Source: Candidatus Versatilivorator sp.
GTDB taxonomy: Bacteria > Acidobacteriota > Terriglobia > Versatilivoradales > Versatilivoraceae
Length of the DNA: 64,000 nt
Direction of reading: 5' to 3'
Assembly (NCBI GenBank): GCA_965207735.1
Contig: OZ242296.1
Location: 3,904,001-3,968,000 of the forward strand
Shown here: piece by piece, positions 371 to 63,459 of the stretch
Numbering within the stretch: the first letter of the stretch is position 1
Layout: each line of letters starts with the position of its first letter
Translations under genes and position numbers: made by a program
The notes under the pieces: generated by a model
Told to the model about the DNA's origin: nothing
Seen by the model: the letters and a program-made list of their open reading frames with translations, nothing else
Database searches by the model: none

Positions 371-546
371 CTCAGGCCAAGGGCGGCCCCGGCCCTGGTG
401 GACGGATCGTTTGAGGATGAAATAGTCGGGAATCGACAATCCGTTCGTGACCTTGGTATCCCTTCGCGGTTGACCTCAACGCCTTGGTGGCCCTTCGTTG
501 ATCTTCGTGTCTCTTCGTGGATTACTCTTTTTCTCTTGTTTCGAAT
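371..546 (+). repeat. Degenerate copy of the ~183 bp non-coding unit that shares ends with the IS110 element
   Basis: Aligns by eye with 13728-13925 (CGGATC..TGAAA, GACCTTGGTATCCC, CTTCGTG triplet, T-tract, TTGTTTC). Confidence 0.75.
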
Positions 547-2575: not shown

Positions 2576-2691
2576 GGGGACGTTGTTGAATTACTGGAAT
2601 TACTTGTAGAGAGCGCATAGGAGACGTCATTGAATCAAAGCAATTCAGCAGCAGCTGATTGAAGTAATTCCAGTAATTCAACAACGTCCCC
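2576..2691. mobile_element. 116 bp MITE-like element, copy 1
   Basis: Perfect 30 bp terminal inverted repeat GGGGACGTTGTTGAATTACTGGAATTACTT; second copy at 32658-32773. Confidence 0.8.
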
Positions 2692-2913
2692 AGCGCTGTG
2701 CGCGAAGCGCACCGGCTTGCAGAGGAGTCGGGGCGCGCCTCGTCGGACAAGGAGGTCCATTTCTCTTAGTGTTCCTTGGAGCGAGTGCTACTGTACAATA
2801 CGGTGGCGCCCACTGAAGACAAGCCGGTATCTTTTCTCTCCTCGGGCGGCGGCGGAGAGGGAAGAGCGACAGGCTCCCCGTTCGTGGGTCAGGACTGAAC
2901 CCCGGAACCAGCC

Positions 2914-4086
2914 ATGGCTGAGATCACCATGCCGAAACTCAGTGACACCATGGAAGACGGCGTGGTGTTGCGTTGGCTCAAGAGTATCGGAGAGACGGTG
3001 GCCAAGGGAGAGGTGGTGGCGGAGATCGAGACCGACAAGGCCACAATGGAGATGGAGTCCCGGGAGGACGGCGTTCTGTCGGAAATTTACGTTGAGGAGG
3101 GCCAAAGGGCTTCCGTCGGTCAACCTATGGCTGCAATCGATGCCGGAGGCCAGTCGTCGCGATCGGCTGAGGTAGCCGCGGAAGTTGCGTCTCCCGAGAT
3201 ACCCGCGAGGACCACCGGCGGAGCGGCTCCCTCAGGGAGGGTCAAGGCCTCGCCCCGGGCTCGAAAAGCCGCCGAGGAGATGAATCTGGACTTGGCCGGC
3301 GTGGAGGGTTCCGGACCCTCGGGCCGCGTTCTCTATCGAGACGTTCTGGCTGCCGGCAGCGCCGGAGCATCCTCGGACCACCCCCCCGCGGCCGGAAGCC
3401 ACCGGGTTCCGCTGAGTTCCATGCGGCAGCTCATCGCTGAACGCATGGTGGAGAGTAAGACCCGGATTCCCCATTTCTATCTGCAGGTGGAGATCGATGC
3501 CGAACCCCTGCTGGAGTTGCAGGGCCAGGTCAACTCCGCCTTGGAGGAGTGGGGCGGAAGCAGGCTGAGCCTCAATGACATGGTGTTGAAGGCGGCGGCC
3601 GTGGCCCTGACCCGGGTGCCTCAGCTCAATGCTTCCTTCACGCCGGAGGGCATTGTTCGCCATGATCAGGTGGACCTGGAGTTTGCGGTCAGCCTGGAGG
3701 AGGGGTTGTTGACGCCGGTGATCCGAAGCGCCGAATCCAAGAGCCTGCGACAGATCAGCCGGGAGGCGAAGGATCTGATTGAAAGAGCGCGCAGTCAGCG
3801 GTTGAACCCCGATGAGTATCGCGGCGGCACCTTTACCGTTTCCAACCTGGGCGCCCGGGGCATTGACAGCTTCCAGGCCATCATCGATCCCCCCCAGGCA
3901 GCCATTCTGGGAGTGGGCGCCATCGTCAAGAAGCCGGTGGTCGACAAGGACGATCGCATTCGGCCGGGTCATCGGCTCAACCTGACCTTGAGTTGCGATC
4001 ACCGGGTGGTCGACGGCGCCGTGGCGGCCGAATTTCTTGGCCGGATTCGGAGGCTGCTCCAGCAACCGGCGTTGCTGCTGTTGTAG
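2914..4086 (+). CDS. pdhC: Dihydrolipoamide acyltransferase (E2) of a 2-oxoacid dehydrogenase complex
   Basis: Lipoyl domain ETDKA, E3-binding ASPRARK, catalytic DHRVVDG. Confidence 0.9.
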   Translation: MAEITMPKLSDTMEDGVVLRWLKSIGETVAKGEVVAEIETDKATMEMESREDGVLSEIYVEEGQRASVGQPMAAIDAGGQSSRSAEVAAEVASPEIPARTTGGAAPSGRVKASPRARKAAEEMNLDLAGVEGSGPSGRVLYRDVLAAGSAGASSDHPPAAGSHRVPLSSMRQLIAERMVESKTRIPHFYLQVEIDAEPLLELQGQVNSALEEWGGSRLSLNDMVLKAAAVALTRVPQLNASFTPEGIVRHDQVDLEFAVSLEEGLLTPVIRSAESKSLRQISREAKDLIERARSQRLNPDEYRGGTFTVSNLGARGIDSFQAIIDPPQAAILGVGAIVKKPVVDKDDRIRPGHRLNLTLSCDHRVVDGAVAAEFLGRIRRLLQQPALLLL

Positions 4087-12998: not shown

Positions 12999-13225
12999 AT
13001 GGTATCTCCGGGCCGAACGGGTGCGATTGGCCAGCTCTTCGAACCCTGACGAGACCGGCCCCGGCGTGCGGGTCATTCCGAGGGGAAACAGCCAGCCGTA
13101 TTCGTTTTGGAAATGAAGACGAACCACGAATGAACGCGAATATACACGAATACGGGTGGAGCTCCTTCAATGACGAGCAGCGCCCGAATGCTTCTGCATT
13201 ATTGTGACGTTGGTGTCACGACGTC

Positions 13226-13543
13226 ATGGGAGGAAGCCCACCCGGGAGCGCGGGCGTCCCGCCCGCACAAATCCTGGTATAGCCTCACCCATCTCCTCGA
13301 CCGGGATCGAACGGCAACGGCGCAGGACTCTGCTTCGGCCGGGCCCATGCGATTTCCACCGGCAGGGGGGCGGACTGCCGCATCTCAGGGAAACTGAGCG
13401 GCAACCCAAGGGACAGGATTAATAGGAGCAGAGGCCGCTGCACGGGACGCTGACTGGGAATCGGGGCGTTGGGCACAGCCAAGGCCCGCCACGGGGAAGA
13501 TCAATCGAGAAGGACAATAAATTGAACATGGATGCACAGGATA
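13226..13543 (+). repeat. Non-coding repeat containing a REP-like GC hairpin; inverted copy at 27419-27737
   Basis: GGGAGCGCGGGCGTCCCGCCCGCAC and ~300 bp following align with the reverse complement of 27419-27737. Confidence 0.8.
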
Positions 13544-13973
13544 ACCAGGACGGGACGCTACGCACGAAACGCTGACTCCGGCGATGATCGTGTGCGGATT
13601 TGCGGATGTCCAGGAATACAAGCCGGCCGTCTCCGGAAAAAATCCTGCGCATCCTGTGCATCCAGGTGAACCAAAAATCTACCCGTGCTTGACTTGGAAC
13701 CGGTTTCCAGCCACCCGGCGCAGCGGGTTGTTTCAGACAAGTCCCGCCCCCGCCTTGGTGTGCGGATCATACATAGAGTGAAACAATCGGAAATCGATCA
13801 TCCCTTCGCGACCTTGGTATCCCGTCGCGGCCAACCTCAGCGCCTTAGTGTCCCTTCGTGGTCCTTCGTGCCCCTTCGTGGATAAGTCTTTTTTCTTTTG
13901 TCTATTGTCGGTTGTTTCAGACAAGTCCCGCCCCCGCCCCCCACGACGGGCGGATCATTCGAGGGTGAAACAA

Positions 13974-14170
13974 CGGATCATTGTGAAAGAATAAGCACCT
14001 GGCGAGACTCCGGCAGCTACGCCCCGTTCCAGCATTGGTGCCCCGTGCCCCAAGACAAGTCTGGGTCCGAGCAGGTCATCATTCATTAGTGAGGCTTCCC
14101 GGGAAGCTCTCCTCAAGGCAAGAATCCGAACGACCACGCCAACTCGGGCCGGAGCCCTCGCCCTGGAGGA
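13974..14170 (+). ncRNA. Candidate bridge/seek RNA of the IS110 element
   Basis: Position typical of IS110 guide RNAs; hairpin CTTCCCGGGAAG; contains AGACAAGTC and AGGCAAG, which also occur at the element junctions; boundaries inferred. Confidence 0.5.
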
Positions 14171-14180
14171 GGCCAATCTC

Positions 14181-15587
14181 ATGCAAAAGAGCAGGAAAGT
14201 CAACACGAAGGCGAAGAAGACCCCGAAGAAGAAGCGCAGCCGTTCGACAGCCTTGTCGCGGATCCACCCCGAGGTGGCAGGGATCGACCTGGGGAGTCGG
14301 GAGCACTGGGTGTGCGCTCCGGAGGTGACCCCAGGGAAGCCGAACGTGCGCACCTTCGGCACCACCATGGAGCAGTTGCAGCAACTGGCCGACTGGTTGC
14401 TGGAGCAAGGGGTGGAGTCGGTGGCGATGGAGAGCACCAACGTGTATTGGATTCCCCTCTACGAACTGCTGGAGTCCTGCGGCATCGAGGTCTTGCTGGT
14501 CAACGCCCGGCAGTTGCGCTACGTTCCGGGCCGCAAGACCGACATGCGGGACTGCCAGTGGATCCAGTTGCTGCACAGTTGCGGCTTGCTGCGGGGATCC
14601 TTCCGTCCGCACGAGGCGATCGTCCGGGTTCGGACCCTGCACCGGCAACTGAGCACTCTGGGGGCCGAGAGTACCCGCTTTGTGCAGTGGATGCAGAAGG
14701 CGCTGGATCAGATGAACGTCCAGATCCATCGTGCGGTCACCGATCTGACCGGTCAGACGGGGATGGCGATCGTGCGGGCGATTGTCGACGGCGAACGGGA
14801 CCCGGTCCGTCTGGCGGGTCTGCGGGACCGACGGTGCAAGAAGTCCAGCCGGGAGTTTGCCGAGCACCTCAGAGGCAACTGGCGAGAAGAGCATCTGTTC
14901 AACCTCAAGTCGGCGCTGAAGCTCTACGACATGACTCAACGCGAGATTGCGGCCTATGAGGCCCGCATCCTGGAGGAAATCCAGGCGCTGCAACCGGTGG
15001 AGCGCCACGACCAGCCCGTGCCGAAGCATCCCAATGCGATCAAGGAAAAGGCGATTCGCCGCCGCGGTGGGCACCACCTGCGCACCGAACTGTGGCGCTT
15101 TGCCGGAGTCGATCTGACGCGTATCGACGGCATCGGCACCGAAGCGGCCCTGACCCTGCTGACTGAGGCCGGCCTCGACCTGACGGCCTTCCCCTCGGAG
15201 AAGCACTTTGTATCCTGGCTGCGCCTGGCTCCAAAAACGGCCGTCTCCGCAGGCAAGCCGCTCCACTACAAGAAGGCCAACAGCACCGGGTCTACTCGCG
15301 CCGCCGCCGTCCTGCGCATGGCAGCCGTCTCTCTGAAGCACTCCAAGACCGCTCTGGGGGCCGCCTTCCGTCGCAAGGCCCGCCACAAGGGATGGAGTGT
15401 CGCCGTCTTCTCCATGGCCCGCCGGCTGGCCGTTCTCGTCTACCGCATGCTGCGCTACGGCCAGGACTACATCGACATCGGGGAAGCGTGCTACGAGGAC
15501 CGGTTCCGGCGACGACGCCTCGCGGGCCTCAAAGATGCCGCTAAGTCTCTTGGTTTCAACCTGGTTCCACAAATCGCAGCCGCTTGA
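14181..15587 (+). CDS. IS110 family transposase/recombinase
   Basis: DEDD residues in GIDLG, AMEST, KTDMRD; C-terminal SAGK serine motif; RBS GGAGG. Confidence 0.95.
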   Translation: MQKSRKVNTKAKKTPKKKRSRSTALSRIHPEVAGIDLGSREHWVCAPEVTPGKPNVRTFGTTMEQLQQLADWLLEQGVESVAMESTNVYWIPLYELLESCGIEVLLVNARQLRYVPGRKTDMRDCQWIQLLHSCGLLRGSFRPHEAIVRVRTLHRQLSTLGAESTRFVQWMQKALDQMNVQIHRAVTDLTGQTGMAIVRAIVDGERDPVRLAGLRDRRCKKSSREFAEHLRGNWREEHLFNLKSALKLYDMTQREIAAYEARILEEIQALQPVERHDQPVPKHPNAIKEKAIRRRGGHHLRTELWRFAGVDLTRIDGIGTEAALTLLTEAGLDLTAFPSEKHFVSWLRLAPKTAVSAGKPLHYKKANSTGSTRAAAVLRMAAVSLKHSKTALGAAFRRKARHKGWSVAVFSMARRLAVLVYRMLRYGQDYIDIGEACYEDRFRRRRLAGLKDAAKSLGFNLVPQIAAA

Positions 15588-16090
15588 ACTGCGGGGTTGT
15601 TTCAGGCAAGCGGGGCCCCTTCCCTGTCGGGCAGATCATCCGAGGGTGAAACAATCAGAAATCGACAATCCTTTCGCGACCTTGGTATCCCGTCGCGGCC
15701 AACCTCAGCGCCTTAGTGTCCCTTCGTCGTTCTTCGTGCCCCTTCGTGGATAAGTCTTTTTTCTTTTGTCTTTTTTCGGTTGTTTCAGACAAGCCGAACC
15801 CCCACCCTGGTGTGCGGATCATACATAGAGTGAAACAATCGGAAATCGACCATCCCTTCGCGACCTGGGCATCCCGTCGCGGTTAACCTCAACGCCTTAG
15901 TGGCCCTTCGTCGTCCTTCGTGTCCCTTCGTGGATAGCTCTTTTTCTTTTGTCTTTTTTCGTTTGTTTCAGCCAAGAAAGGGGGCGGGGCGTCTTTGCAT
16001 CCGAACCCCTGCAGGTTATATTACACCTCCCGGTTCAGGGGTCGGACGGTAGTCATTCCATAGGCAGGCTCAAAAACAACGAGGTTAGAG

Positions 16091-21769: not shown

Positions 21770-23443
21770 TCAAATCTCCAGGATGACCGGCAGCACCAGC
21801 GGCCGCTTGGCCGTCTGCTTGAACAGGAAGCGGCGCAAGTCGGTGCGGATCTTCTCCTTGATGAGGGACCAGTCGGTTCTCTCTTCCACGCTGGAGTCCT
21901 CCAGGGTTTCCAGCACACGGCCGCGGGCTTCTTCCAGGAGAGTGTCGTCTTCGTCCACGAAGACGAAGCCTCGGGTGATGATCTCGGGCTGGGTCTCCAT
22001 CTGGCCGCTGGCCTTGTTGATGGCCAGAATGGGAAGCACAATGCCGTCCTCGGAAAGATGGCGGCGGTCCCTCACCACCACTTCCTCCAGCTCGTCCAGG
22101 CTGCCCTCATCGATAAAGATTCGGCCCACGGGCGCCTTGCCGTTGACCTCGGCCCCCTCCCGGCTCAGTTGAATGCGATCGCCGGTCTCCGCGACCAGCA
22201 CCGTGTCTCCCACCGCGTGCAGGTTTCTGGCCAATTCCGCGTGGCGATGGAGTTGGCGGTATTCTCCATGGATGGGCACGAAATGCCTGGGGCGTACCAG
22301 GTTTAGCAGCAGCTTCAGCTCCTCGGAGCTGGCGTGTCCTGAAACGTGAATGGGAGGCAGGGATCCGTCATCGTAATGGACGGCCGCACCCCTCTTGTAG
22401 AGATGGTTGACCATGCGGGAAATGGTCTTTTCGTTGCCGGGAATGATGCGCGCCGAAATCACCACGGTGTCTTCCCGCCCGATTTTCACGTTCTTGAAGT
22501 TGTCCACGGCCATCTGGGGCAGGGCGGCCAGCGGTTGCCCCTGACAGCCCGTCAGAATCAAGACGACGCGTTCCGGCGGCATTCTCCTGACGTCCTGTAT
22601 CTTGACCAGCAGTCCGTCCGGAATGTTCAGGTAGCCGAGCTGGTGGGCGACCCTGGTCGTCGACAGCATGCTCCGTCCGGCGATGGCCACCTTGCGCCCA
22701 TAGCGCTGGGCCAGGTTGAACACGGTCTGAATGCGATGGATGGAGGAGGTGAAACAGGAAACGATCACCTTGCCCGGAGCGTGGTGAAAGATCTCGTCCA
22801 GCTTTTCGATCACGGCGGTTTCCGAGGGGGTAAATCCCGGCCGATCCACGTTGGTGCTGTCTGAAAACAACGCCAGCACCCCCCGGCTTCCGTACTCGGC
22901 AATTCGGGGCAGGTCGGTGACCCGGCCATCCAGGGGTGAGAGGTCGATCTTGAAATCCCCCGTGTGGAGAATCACTCCCGCCGGGGTGGTGATCGCCAGC
23001 ATGACGGCATCCACAATGCTGTGGGTGACATGGATGAACTCCACCCGGAAGTCTCCCATTTGGTGGGTCTGGCCGGCCTCGACGGTGATGAGCTCGGCCT
23101 GATCCAGCAAATGGTGCTCGGCCAGCTTGGCGGAGGCCAGGCCCAGGGTGTATCCGGTGCCGTATATGGGAACATGGCTCAAGGCGGGGAACACGAAGGG
23201 TAGGGCCCCGATGTGATCCTCGTGGCCGTGGGTCAGCACGATGGCTTGAACCTGGGAGGCATTGTCAATCAGGAAGGAGATGTCGGGGACGATGACGTCG
23301 ATGCCCAGGAGCTCTTCATCGGGAAACATCAAGCCCGAATCCACCACGATCATCTGATCGCCGTAGCGGAACACCATCATGTTCATCCCGAACTCCCCCA
23401 AGCCGCCGAGCGGGATGGCTTCAATAAACTCCTTAGAATTCAC
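21770..23443 (-). CDS. rnj: Ribonuclease J
   Basis: LGGLGEFGMN, THGHEDHIG, HTGDFK, HVSGH, PIHGE. Confidence 0.96.
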   Translation of the reverse strand: MNSKEFIEAIPLGGLGEFGMNMMVFRYGDQMIVVDSGLMFPDEELLGIDVIVPDISFLIDNASQVQAIVLTHGHEDHIGALPFVFPALSHVPIYGTGYTLGLASAKLAEHHLLDQAELITVEAGQTHQMGDFRVEFIHVTHSIVDAVMLAITTPAGVILHTGDFKIDLSPLDGRVTDLPRIAEYGSRGVLALFSDSTNVDRPGFTPSETAVIEKLDEIFHHAPGKVIVSCFTSSIHRIQTVFNLAQRYGRKVAIAGRSMLSTTRVAHQLGYLNIPDGLLVKIQDVRRMPPERVVLILTGCQGQPLAALPQMAVDNFKNVKIGREDTVVISARIIPGNEKTISRMVNHLYKRGAAVHYDDGSLPPIHVSGHASSEELKLLLNLVRPRHFVPIHGEYRQLHRHAELARNLHAVGDTVLVAETGDRIQLSREGAEVNGKAPVGRIFIDEGSLDELEEVVVRDRRHLSEDGIVLPILAINKASGQMETQPEIITRGFVFVDEDDTLLEEARGRVLETLEDSSVEERTDWSLIKEKIRTDLRRFLFKQTAKRPLVLPVILEI

Positions 23444-25216: not shown

Positions 25217-25440
25217 CTTACCTGGAACAGAAGAAAAAGGAGTGATCCACGAAGACACACGAAGGACCACTAAGGCAATGATGTTTATTTGAAACAACGC
25301 CTTGTGCCGGGTGGCGGAACATCCGTTCAAAGTCCAGCATAGTCAGACGGCTAATTTACATGGATGCACAGGATGCACAGGATTTTTTCCGGAGACGGCT
25401 GGCTTGTATTCCTGGAAATCCGTAAATCCTCACTCGATCT
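25217..25440 (-). repeat. Composite non-coding repeat ending in the IS110-type right end
   Basis: 25277-25382 matches 62958-63055 and, inverted, ~13590-13736; 25217-25276 is half of the 183 bp unit. Confidence 0.7.
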
Positions 25441-32610: not shown

Positions 32611-32657
32611 GGCGATTCTCCTTTCGCTCGGGAGGAAGCAGGGGACGGGAGGAAGCA

Positions 32658-32773
32658 GGGGACGTTGTTGAATTACTGGAATAACTTGTAAAGAGCGCGT
32701 AGGTGCCGTTATCGAACAAAGGCAATTCAGGAGCGGCCGATCAAAGTAATTCCAGCAATTCAACAACGTCCCC
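32658..32773. mobile_element. 116 bp MITE-like element, copy 2
   Basis: Same IR and length as 2576-2691; GGGAGGAAGCAGGGGAC is tandemly duplicated at its left end. Confidence 0.8.
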
Positions 32774-32832
32774 AGCGCTGTACGACGATTATTGCAAAAG
32801 GCTCCAAGATGAAAGGGTGAGTAGAATTGGAC

Positions 32833-43362: not shown

Positions 43363-44231
43363 GTGCGCCATGGAAAGGCGCCTTCTTCCAACGGGTGCGA
43401 AACCCGTCCAACAACTGTCGCTCCGGTTGGTAGCAGCCAGGGCGGATCATGGAGGTAACGATATGGTCTGAAGCCCTCTGGTGTCAAAGGGCCGCTTAAG
43501 GCGGTTCAGCGAGCATGCGGGCCGGAACGCGAGTGAACGTCGAGCAGGCCTCGAAACGGGCAATGCGGGGGCCGACCCACCTGAGAAATGGGGAAGGCCG
43601 AAGACGGAGGGGGAAGCGAGCGACGCGGGCACCCCTTTGGACCCGCCGGGGTAGTGGCGCTGGCACGCATGGAAGGGGAAGAAGGCAGCAACATGGGAAG
43701 CCCTGTGGGTGGTGAGGCACGCACCGAACCGGAAGCTCGCGAGAGTCAGTCTAGGCCGACAGGGTGGCGGAGAGGCCTGTAGTACCGGAGAAGCCGGGTA
43801 ATACCGGTGGAGGGAAGGGGCCTCAGGTGAGGAGCGGTGACCGAAGGGGGAAGGGTCCCGGGAGTGGCGAAAGCCTGAAACCCCGACCAAAAAAGGGCCG
43901 GAGACTCCGGAAGCATCACATGCAAAAGTGAAAGGGTCGTCGGAGGAGGACGGCGTCGTCAGGGCATCAACAGGCCTGGCGGCAACCCGGGAGCGGAAGT
44001 GGATGGAGTGGGGGACGGGTGCCAATCCCATAGGAGTCGTCCACGGATGCGAGCGGGGACCTGTGTGCGAGACGCATGATCCCACTGGAGAGCCGAGATG
44101 CGGGAAAACCGCACGTCCGGTTCGGAGAGCGGGGACTGGAAACGTGATAAGGGAGCCGGACTGAGGCCCGAAGCGAAAGCGACGGAATAGCCACCGGACC
44201 CTATAGTCAACGCGCCAGTCCTCGACTCTAC
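43363..44231 (+). ncRNA. ORF-less group II intron (869 nt)
   Basis: 5' GTGCG; domain V GAGCCGAGATGCGGGAAAACCGCACGTCCGGTTC near 44090; long domain VI ending CTCGACTCTAC; no RT ORF. Confidence 0.9.
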
Positions 44232-62274: not shown

Positions 62275-63330
62275 CTTGCCTGATACAAAGGAAAAAAGAC
62301 AAAGGGAAAAAGAGCTATCCACGAAGACACACGAAGAACGACGAAGGGCCACTAAGGCGTTGAGGTGAACCGCGACGGGATACCAAGGTCGCGAAAGGAT
62401 TATCGATTTCTGATAGTTTCACTCTCGAATGATCCGCCCGGCAGGGAAGGGGCCGGACTGTTTTGTAATTGATAATCCCCGGGCGAACGCCCGGGCGACC
62501 CATTGAGCCGCGGAGCGGCGGCAGCAGGTAGCCGTGGGCGTAAGCCCATGGAAAGGGGTAGCTCCACGTCGAGCCGCGAAGGCGGCGACAGCAGAGGGCC
62601 GAAAGCGCGAGGCCCCGGAGACCGGCTCTCCTGAGACAAAAGAAAAAGAGGAATCCACGAAGGGCCACGAAGAACGACGAAGGACCACTAAGGCGTTGAG
62701 GTGAACCGCAACGGGATACCAAGGTCGCGAAGGGATAGCCGATTTCTGATTGTTTCACTCTCGAATGATCCGCACACCAGGGAAGGGGCCGGACTTACCT
62801 GAGAATATGCTGCTTTAGCCGGCTTCCTTGAGAGCGGCGAAGCCGCGGCAGCACTTAGCCGTGGGCGTCAGCCCATGGGAAACGTCGCCTATGGGTTCGA
62901 GCCGCGTAGGCGGCGGTAGCAAATGCCGGTGAGCCCAAGTGAAGCACAAGCCGACGCAATGATGTTAATTTGAAACAACGCCTTGTGCCGGGTGGCGGAA
63001 AATCCGTTCAAAGTCCAGCATCGTCAGACGGCTAATTTACATGGATGGACAGGATTATTGGGCGAGAGTTTCCACCGTCTTGAGTTCAACCATCGCCTCT
63101 GTTCCAACACGGATTTCCCAGAACCCGCTCCCGGGCTCTTGGATCACTTCCAACACCCACCCGATCATCAAGCGGGTCTGCTTCTGTGGCACAGCCTCTC
63201 GTGCCGTTTGTCCTGTTTATCCTGTGCATCCATGTTCAATAAGTAGAAAACCGGTCTTGCACGACATGGCCCTTGTTCTCGACAGGCCATGAAGATTCGT
63301 TGTTTCACTCTCGCATGATCCGCACGCGGG
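62275..63330 (-). repeat. Second array of units with IS110-type ends, interleaved with REP-like hairpins
   Basis: Left ends near 62415-62460, 62750-62806, 63299-63325; two 183 bp-type units; AGCCGTGGGCGT(A/C)AGCCCATGG near 62530 and 62857. Confidence 0.75.
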
Positions 63331-63459
63331 GACGGAGAAGCGGCTAACCTCCGTGGCGGGCGCGGAGTTCGTCAAAAGCCTGTCCGATTCCGAGGGAGTC
63401 CGGGTATACTCCGGGACGGAAGGCAGCAACCTGCAACCGTTCAACTGAAAGGGATTTCC

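Follow-up and report, generated by a model that had tools for sequence, protein, structure and literature searches.

The closest described counterpart of the locus reported here is the insertion sequence (IS) ISPpu9 of Pseudomonas putida KT2440 together with MITEPpu9 (ssr9), a miniature inverted-repeat transposable element (MITE). The two have a 41-nt left box and a 14-nt right box in common, are joined at an AG core head to tail (B|A'), and form modular circles, and ssr9 occurs in tandem copies (PMC12288879, PMC8450116; these and the other reports on related systems are cited for the portions accessible to us). IS621, another IS110-family element, has a recombinase with a DEDD domain and a catalytic serine in the Tnp domain, carries its RNA in a long left end with the target loop before the donor loop, and inserts scarlessly at a dinucleotide core; the 5' and 3' guides of each loop pair with opposite strands and both touch the core (PMC11208160, PMC13626964; PDB 8wt6). 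IS621 insertion does not remake its target because target and donor guides differ. Tandem non-coding units have been described at 468 IS110 loci, in the accessible text with only one-sided donor matches and insertion without target regeneration (10.64898/2026.08.14.744561). Here we describe an IS110 element in a 64,000-nt stretch of the genome of Candidatus Versatilivorator sp. (Acidobacteriota; contig OZ242296.1, positions 3,904,001 to 3,968,000; hereafter the window), where it stands among short units with the same ends and no transposase gene. The system is an IS110 bridge recombinase with a very large MITE family, and like ISPpu9/MITEPpu9, its direct precedent, it is modular and AG-joined. 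The target guide of its predicted bridge RNA spells the element's own right end (RE), and we consider it likely that the arrays are built by stacking through this self-matching guide.

An initial annotation, made from the sequence alone, had reported a junction of about 60 bp recurring at 13045..15976. The array itself is confirmed, while the interpretation placed on it is supported in part. Measured from core to core on the plus strand, the units are 688 bp (13054..13741), 184 bp (13742..13925), 1685 bp (13926..15610), 183 bp (15611..15793) and 183 bp (15794..15976). The 1685-bp slot is, as had been proposed, the IS110 element, with an AG core on both sides and a 468-amino-acid open reading frame (ORF; 14181..15587, plus strand) matching PF01548 and PF02371; the genome holds 10 copies at 97-100% identity. 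The claim of common ends around different interiors held for the ends; the three short units, however, form one interior family (89-96% interior identity), and only the 688-bp unit differs, with its degenerate left end (LE), a mosaic interior containing relic ends of a GxxExxY-type nuclease gene cassette, and an RE. The 184-bp unit belongs to the main family of about 182 bp (151 members in the genome), and the terminal unit has a variant RE (CAGCCAAG) in common with the orthologous site in a relative's genome. Nor is the recurring junction a single site: it consists of the RE of one unit joined at the AG core to the next LE.

This division follows from the 10 IS copies. All end in GTTGTTTCAGRCAAG, and their right flanks diverge beyond the final AG. 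The RE-like stretch to the left of the IS varies between copies and is therefore part of the target rather than of the IS; taken with the flank divergence, this defines the junction as RE|LE with an AG core. Across the copies the LE is identical apart from a 1-nt indel, and the RE is identical apart from R. The left end (13926..13974, plus strand) comprises 8 nt, a hairpin (13934-13953), the 7-mer ATCATTC (13954-13960), 6 nt and a subterminal repeat GAAAC(AAC) from 13967. The right end (15595..15610, plus strand) comprises the subterminal repeat GTTGTTTC followed by a 7-nt guide site that ends in the AG core. A circle junction would be identical in sequence to an array junction.

The recombinase has the DEDD RuvC-like domain and the Tnp domain with catalytic serine that are typical of the IS110 family. 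D36, E84, D121 and S356 are invariant among the aligned relatives, and D124 is present in 10 of 11. Its profile matches IS621 and ISCro4 in the PDB (IS621, E 2e-11), the catalytic-serine region aligns with that of IS621, and its nearest relatives, 79-99% identical, are mostly from Terriglobia or Ca. Versatilivorator. Both ends have the AG core, terminal inverted repeats are absent, and insertion is scarless, fitting empty sites in a relative. The layout is not that of the IS1111 group, whose RNA is carried in a long non-coding right end with subterminal repeats of 7-17 bp: the RNA lies in a 255-bp left end, and the right end is 23 bp. The 8-9 bp subterminal repeats, which are present and covary, are an IS1111-group-like trait. 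In IS621-type systems a sigma-70 promoter forms across the RE-LE junction; a scan for this one promoter type found no consensus site across 13880-14200.

Upstream of 54 related transposases (49-97% identity) lies a conserved element of 140-160 nt, from which we predict a bridge RNA at 14006..14156 (plus strand): a three-way junction whose target loop and donor loop each enclose an inner hairpin. The nested structure of closing stem, target arm and donor arm, assembled from RNAalifold output and by eye, leaves 96.2% of alignment cells paired and has two-sided changes at 21 of 32 pairs; slid control structures gave 37-55% paired. A pseudoknot was considered and rejected, as the fully nested structure fits. 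Single-sequence folding of the region was uninformative (z +1.9), and a comparison with Rfam returned no match for the RNA. Four predicted guides lie in the loops, all on the plus strand. Guide 0 (14026..14033), on the 5' side of the target loop, shows weak complementarity to the bases that immediately follow the insertion core on its right. Guide 1, AGACAAG (14053..14059), on the 3' side of the target loop, has the sense of the 7 nt ending in the target AG and equals the element's own RE. In the donor loop, guide 3, ATCATTC (14078..14084), lies on the 5' side with the sense of the LE site behind the hairpin, and guide 2, AGGCAAG (14116..14122), on the 3' side with the sense of the last 7 nt of the RE. 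The arrangement is that of IS621 on the other strand: AG corresponds to CT, and the 5' target-loop guide reads beyond the core, which is the far side in the IS621 report's own convention (PMC11208160).

These assignments were examined by covariation over 47 distinct guide sets with 5000 permutations; DNA anchors were picked without reference to the guides, and locus L123 was left out for poor alignment. Guide 1 matched the 5 nt before the target AG at 4.59 of 5 positions (permuted 1.72, n=41), guide 2 matched the RE at 4.95 of 5 (permuted 2.53, n=44), and guide 3 matched the LE site at 6.37 of 7 (permuted 4.09, n=41); in each case 0 of 5000 permutations reached the observed value. Crossed pairings of guide and DNA stayed near background. 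Along 20 independent tree pairs (L095 excluded), changes in the RNA were matched in the DNA in 37 of 45 cases for guide 1, 16 of 16 for guide 2 and 16 of 21 for guide 3. Guide 0 gave 3.74 against 3.01 for the first bases right of the core (0 of 2000 permutations), with complementarity of about 48% at the first two positions. A role for guide 3 as the right-target guide was rejected (4.0 versus 3.84 permuted). Within the genome, the A/G position of guide 2 follows that of the RE in 10 of 10 IS copies.

In this lineage the main target guide and the donor guide both read AGRCAAG. Because the two are the same and guide 0 is weak, the RE|flank junction produced by an insertion is likely to be a target once more. 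All 10 IS copies lie directly behind an RE-type site, although only 218 of the 1459 AGRCAAG sites in the genome have such a context (about 6e-9 if the copies are independent), and so do 16 of 16 copies with AGRCAAG-type guides in four relatives. A sister family in the genus has the same guide 2 and a different guide 1, AGGTCAG; its members lie behind GGTYAG in 9 of 9 cases and directly behind an RE in 0 of 9. Across the clade, 10 of 41 targets are RE-like, and these fall on several separate tree branches. The initial annotation had proposed that the enzyme stacks non-autonomous units by regenerating its site, and the guide identity, together with the genome comparison from which we infer mobility, supports that proposal. 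It had also set out the opposite case, in which the IS merely hits a pre-existing repeat. The IS does end at an AG inside the junction, yet it carries both halves, so that in substance this case does not apply.

Mapped genome-wide as had been suggested, the RE pattern gave 268 sites (<=1 mismatch) compared with 3 for a single 3-mer shuffle; an LE follows directly on 127 of the 268 genomic sites. An LE profile found 315 sites, among which 239 close on an RE without an intervening LE and 17 are nested; for the other 59 there is no RE within 3.2 kb. The closed units are the 10 IS copies and 229 units without an IS110 gene. By size, 151 are of about 182 bp, 19 are of 60-63 bp and consist of LE and RE only, 10 are the IS, and the others are 300-900 bp or longer. 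They form 142 arrays, 92 of single units and 50 of two to seven, head to tail and in a single orientation within each array, and cover 102,585 bp, about 2% of the genome with nested elements counted. With both IS ends, no transposase of their own and many dispersed copies, the units without the IS110 gene have the make-up of IS110-dependent MITEs. Short units avoid long ORFs (22 of 175 midpoints inside, versus 82% of the genome). Adjacent units of about 182 bp are 0.859 identical (n=25) versus 0.835 for random pairs, and two pairs of 100% identical units sit in unrelated flanks; because neighbours are thus about as unlike as random pairs and identical units are dispersed, we conclude that dispersed copies were the main source of this genome's arrays. 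The interiors of the units are pieced together from other repeats, and 15 of the 239 units have a tblastn match to relic ends of GxxExxY gene cassettes.

Further support comes from the genomes of relatives, which we number G001, G002 and so on (G000 being the genome of the window; L-numbers are individual relative loci). In 1.2 Mb of G002 we compared 31 unique flanks: 26 have an RE-like site in both genomes, and 5 lack it in G002. Nine of the 31 rows look like chance in-gene matches and the unit lists depend on hidden Markov model thresholds, so we cite only the clean cases. The empty site TATCAGGCAAG|TTGAG in G002 corresponds to a 161-bp unit in G000; an array of one 181-bp unit in G002 corresponds to units of 182 and 183 bp plus the IS in G000; and in a third comparison with G002 an array of one 387-bp unit stands against one of 387 and 166 bp, where G005 has the IS as last unit before the same flank (L232). 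The differences in unit number that the initial annotation had asked for are therefore present in G002 as precise empty and shorter versions, and there are empty sites lacking both junction halves. At the position of the window array, G009 has about 46 bp without units, G004 one RE, and G002 different units. Of 13 other genomes of the genus, 12 have the junction pattern, with 10-285 matches each, and of 17 genomes from other genera none has it; in the complete genome G001 neither it nor the RNA was found.

From the observed shared ends, AG core, guide identity, covariation of guides 1, 2 and 3, placement of the IS behind REs and precise differences in unit number, we propose the following course of events. 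The recombinase and its RNA would act in trans on units that encode neither, joining RE to LE in a circle or copied strand. With insertion at AGRCAAG|N, the left side would again become a donor-type junction and the right side a target, and IS and gene-less mini-elements would thereby be inserted one behind another, each RE serving as a fresh target. Specificity would be almost one-sided because guide 0 is weak, with an extra preference for the TTGTTTC subterminal repeat. Mobilisation of units in trans by the cognate transposase is suggested by the empty sites and the identical dispersed copies.

Several observations weigh against so simple a scheme. Unit mobility is read from a comparison of assembled contigs. 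In only 7 of 10 copies does the A/G of guide 1 agree with that of the site which the copy occupies, a shortfall that trans action or wobble would explain. Array founders fit less well: among 124 well-anchored first LEs, 33 have no AG before them, and of the remaining 91 just 37 agree with the guide at 4-5 of 5 letters (126 of 5000 in the background); many lie behind other repeat modules. The 59 LEs with no RE in reach also count against the scheme. Among 258 LEs, 118 carry ATCATAC, which has one mismatch to the resident guide 3 and fits the guide of the sister family; no RNA with an ATCATAC-type guide 3 was found in G000, and part of the unit stock therefore probably predates the present enzyme. 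At the window locus G000 and G002 share the variant terminal RE, but the units that precede it are not the same, and insertion at the final AG would not lead one to expect this. Finally, some arrays in G005 and G009 contain several like units in a row, the pattern expected from duplication in place. Array formation has probably also involved other enzymes and recombination between repeats.

The initial annotation had spoken of integron-like behaviour with passengers. An integron has a tyrosine integrase that works without RNA, an attI platform that is fixed and has a promoter, and cassettes that carry genes. Head-to-tail order, single orientation and a junction that can fold as a single strand do recall attC arrays, yet there is no tyrosine integrase here, no gene cassettes, and no fixed integrase-attI platform: the units are scattered over 142 separate arrays, most of one unit. 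In the 64 closed units longer than 250 bp we found no intact passenger gene apart from transposases and an intron reverse transcriptase (RT), their long ORFs belonging to the IS110 element or other mobile elements. Long units of 1.67, 1.9, 2.1, 2.2 and 2.8 kb were considered as cargo cassettes and rejected; in each, a short unit has been interrupted by another transposase or by a group II intron RT (the family names of these ORFs come from motifs, apart from PF01609, which a domain search gave for a like ORF). Intact GxxExxY genes were rejected as passengers too, with 0 of 27 loci from genus relatives (26 full-length) enclosed by LE and RE. That the units are gene cassettes collected for the benefit of the host is thus hardly credible, and because they hold no intact passenger genes the resemblance to integrons does not go beyond architecture. 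We regard the units as selfish passengers of MITE type that serve other mobile elements as landing pads. The junction might otherwise be a host repeat, REP-like (repetitive extragenic palindromic) or flanking a cassette, that another enzyme or homologous recombination has spread and that the IS110 element merely targets, its own halves being copies. The mosaic interiors with their GxxExxY relics would suit this, many relatives target REP-like, heptamer or tRNA-like sites, and the occurrence of the variant terminal RE across different interiors suggests conversion or crossing-over between repeats. However, the same end architecture (AG, hairpin and GAAAC; GTTTC and 7 nt) is found on elements with as little as 53% protein identity, each of the two ends covaries with the RNA of its own element, the empty sites lack both halves, and the junction pattern is confined to the genus with this IS. 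We regard this origin as very unlikely.

Arrays could also grow by half-match reactions of the donor loop, through a match to the RE alone or through two donor loops, resolved in place or in trans, with the likeness of the target guide being incidental. Half-match insertion and donor-only excision have been described for IS621 in the accessible part of one report (10.64898/2026.08.31.748434), and the one-sided donor matches at the 468 loci with tandem non-coding units beside IS110 (10.64898/2026.08.14.744561) point the same way, as do the runs of like units in G005 and G009 and a partial IS copy in G005 that extends from an internal AG to the RE. This copy (L147, array positions 2644-3295 as oriented) lies directly behind a full one, begins at an AG inside the transposase gene (window 14959-14960) and resembles the 'tnp-B fragment of ISPpu9. 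Against this, the sister family, which has the same donor guide and RE 7-mer, is found directly behind an RE in none of its 9 copies. G008, where only the sister family was found, has 20 junctions versus 78-285 in G000, G002, G004, G005 and G009, yet G013, which has both families, has only 29. In distant relatives lying behind a foreign RE (L052, L077, L078, L083) the site follows guide 1 and not guide 2, and the dissimilarity of neighbouring units in G000 does not favour duplication in place. On balance we think half-match growth unlikely as the main process, and favour stacking by the self-matching guide.

A second feature sets the donor apart. Guide 3 occupies the slot expected to pair with the core-adjacent LE on the strand opposite guide 2, and its reverse complement shows no match to LE positions +1..+12 (2.41 versus 2.44 permuted). 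It matches in the same strand sense as guide 2, at a site that starts at +21 to +30, right behind the hairpin. In 38 relatives the spacing between core and site is 20-29 nt and varies with hairpin length, while 31 of them have 6 nt between site and subterminal repeat; the two arms that run from the repeats to the hairpin usually measure 15 and 13 nt and differ in length by 2 in 26 of 38. Among G000 junctions, the site lies at +24, or at +28 or +29 where the hairpin is a variant, and 6-7 nt separate it from the repeat in 122 of 124. The outer bases of the two subterminal repeats are complementary at 1.66 of 3 positions versus 1.03 permuted. The site ends in C in 124 of 124 cases in G000 and 40 of 40 in relatives, partly forced by the way sites were picked.

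This geometry would be accommodated if the CT-bearing donor strand folded, with the subterminal repeats pairing and the hairpin forming a cap. In such a fold, guides 2 and 3 would pair with opposite arms on either side of the core, and the last C of guide 3 would face the core, in the register that the C following guide 0 has. We give about even chances to this prediction from guide geometry, that the donor junction is read as a folded, attC-like single strand. Reports that IS621 circles are single-stranded (10.64898/2026.08.31.748434) and that another IS110 element inserts the top strand (10.1101/2025.10.25.684509), each as far as the accessible text goes, are in its favour. Against it, four natural junctions fold weakly better than shuffles (z -1.0 to -1.7; median of relatives -2.1), ISPpu9 with a like hairpin mutated still formed circles in the accessible account (PMC12288879), and sites bound by protein would be just as likely to have paired repeats. 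The covariation of guide 3 is also compatible with a looped duplex or with a separate, second binding step. Extending the folded donor to a large IS110 clade, probably including ISPpu9, with a 15-by-13 bubble in the register of the IS621 duplex and with several branches independently aiming the target guide at the RE to yield a self-perpetuating builder of arrays with attC-like sites, is a tentative proposal to which we give slightly less than an even chance.

Compared with the described systems, the element combines known and unfamiliar traits. The boxes of ISPpu9, by our own reading of Table S2 of PMC12288879, have the same anatomy: a hairpin, 13 nt (a 7-mer ending in C, then 6 nt), a repeat that is inverted in the right box, and in the right box a final 7 nt with AG. 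By contrast, ISPpu9 inserts into REPs and is described in 7 copies with 8 of MITEPpu9, versus 229 units in several size classes down to 60 bp here, and here the target guide spells the element's own RE. With IS621 the present element has in common the two recombinase domains, the RNA in a long left end, the loop order, the dinucleotide core (AG here being CT on the other strand) and scarless insertion; it differs in its opposite strand convention, in having one weak target guide, and in having both donor guides on the same strand, one of them 21-30 nt from the core, so that donor guides abutting the core on opposite strands, as in IS621, are not found. The 468 expanded loci resemble ours in their non-coding units beside IS110 with donor-end matches at the boundaries, whereas in the present genome complete RE|LE junctions are seen at 127 of 268 REs, units are scattered over the whole genome, and the site that insertion regenerates is one that the target guide matches. 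In ISPpu10, too, a DNA stem-loop has a part in recognition (10.64898/2026.03.19.712850); that hairpin lies in the target beside canonical guide sites, while here it lies in the donor between core and guide site. Modular stacking of IS110 and MITE is thus already known. A literature search, mostly of non-subscription sources, found no published case of a target guide that equals the donor guide and regenerates the target, or of a displaced donor guide; the supplement of 10.64898/2026.10.21.760802 and the figures of PMC11208160 might hold this RNA class.

Bridge recombination has been viewed as destroying its target; this system is an exception that occurs in nature and is encoded in a guide, and it indicates that one RNA-guided enzyme can fill a genome with MITE arrays. 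A site remade at each insertion offers a model for iterative, ordered stacking of DNA. Through the displaced donor guide, compensatory mutations could test whether IS110 intermediates are single- or double-stranded; if the folded donor is correct, the enzyme reads donor DNA as a folded strand. Elements on plasmids of Nostoc and Caballeronia score with the RNA model and offer cultured hosts for such tests. In both, L239 (Caballeronia) and L241 (Nostoc), tandem elements of the wider clade are joined RE|LE with two RNA-model matches each, and guides 1 and 2 of L241 match target and RE by eye. In the branch of L095, L098 and L101 the LE starts with the same bases as the displaced target; its insertion site looks like the 3' end of what we take to be a tRNA gene.

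MITEs carrying their own bridge RNA were looked for in G000 and rejected, as no RNA copy exists there beyond the 10 IS. In G005, a transposase-less unit of about 350 bp (L236, G005:C3:3790703 region, locus ~1420-1770) consists of LE, full bridge RNA and RE; its guide 1, AGATAAG, matches the occupied site and its guide 2, AGGTAAG, its own RE. G009 has a similar unit with RNA, L215, for which no right end was found. In the window, a weak RNA-model match at 21795-21928 (plus strand; 21.6 bits, E 0.006) is probably due to chance.

Not all ends are clean. An extra RCAAG follows 17 of 140 terminal REs (0.26 expected), for example at window 62275 (minus strand) and genome positions 4930359 and 2699230, and two empty G002 sites suggest slippage between the two AGs 5 nt apart in AGRCAAG. 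Other mobile elements have entered the units: a group II intron lies inside six G000 units (411448, 729140, 1237084, 1406216, 3189460, 4521617), and an element with a DDE-type transposase of 391-395 amino acids inside eight (107429, 263175, 1687688, 1793514, 3821730, 4451905, 4680810, 4726720). In those read, both recur at similar places within units, which act as landing pads.

The window array lies between rsmA and a thioredoxin-reductase-like gene, and the only enzyme inside it is the IS110 recombinase. Ends had also been noted elsewhere in the window. A degenerate unit of the same family lies at 382..546 (plus strand), with an LE at 382 and no RE called, and 62275..63343 (minus strand) holds three LEs (63343, 62793, 62457) and one RE (62275); the stretch at 25217-25300 (minus strand) is RE-like by eye and was missed by the RE pattern. 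At 62506-62551 and 62833-62878 (minus strand), Acido-Lenti-1 hairpins identified by Rfam alternate with the LE-bearing units. Rfam also places a group II intron at 43389-44231 (plus strand). A 128-bp element with 30-bp perfect inverted arms occurs twice (2575-2702 and 32657-32784) and is unrelated to the IS110 ends.

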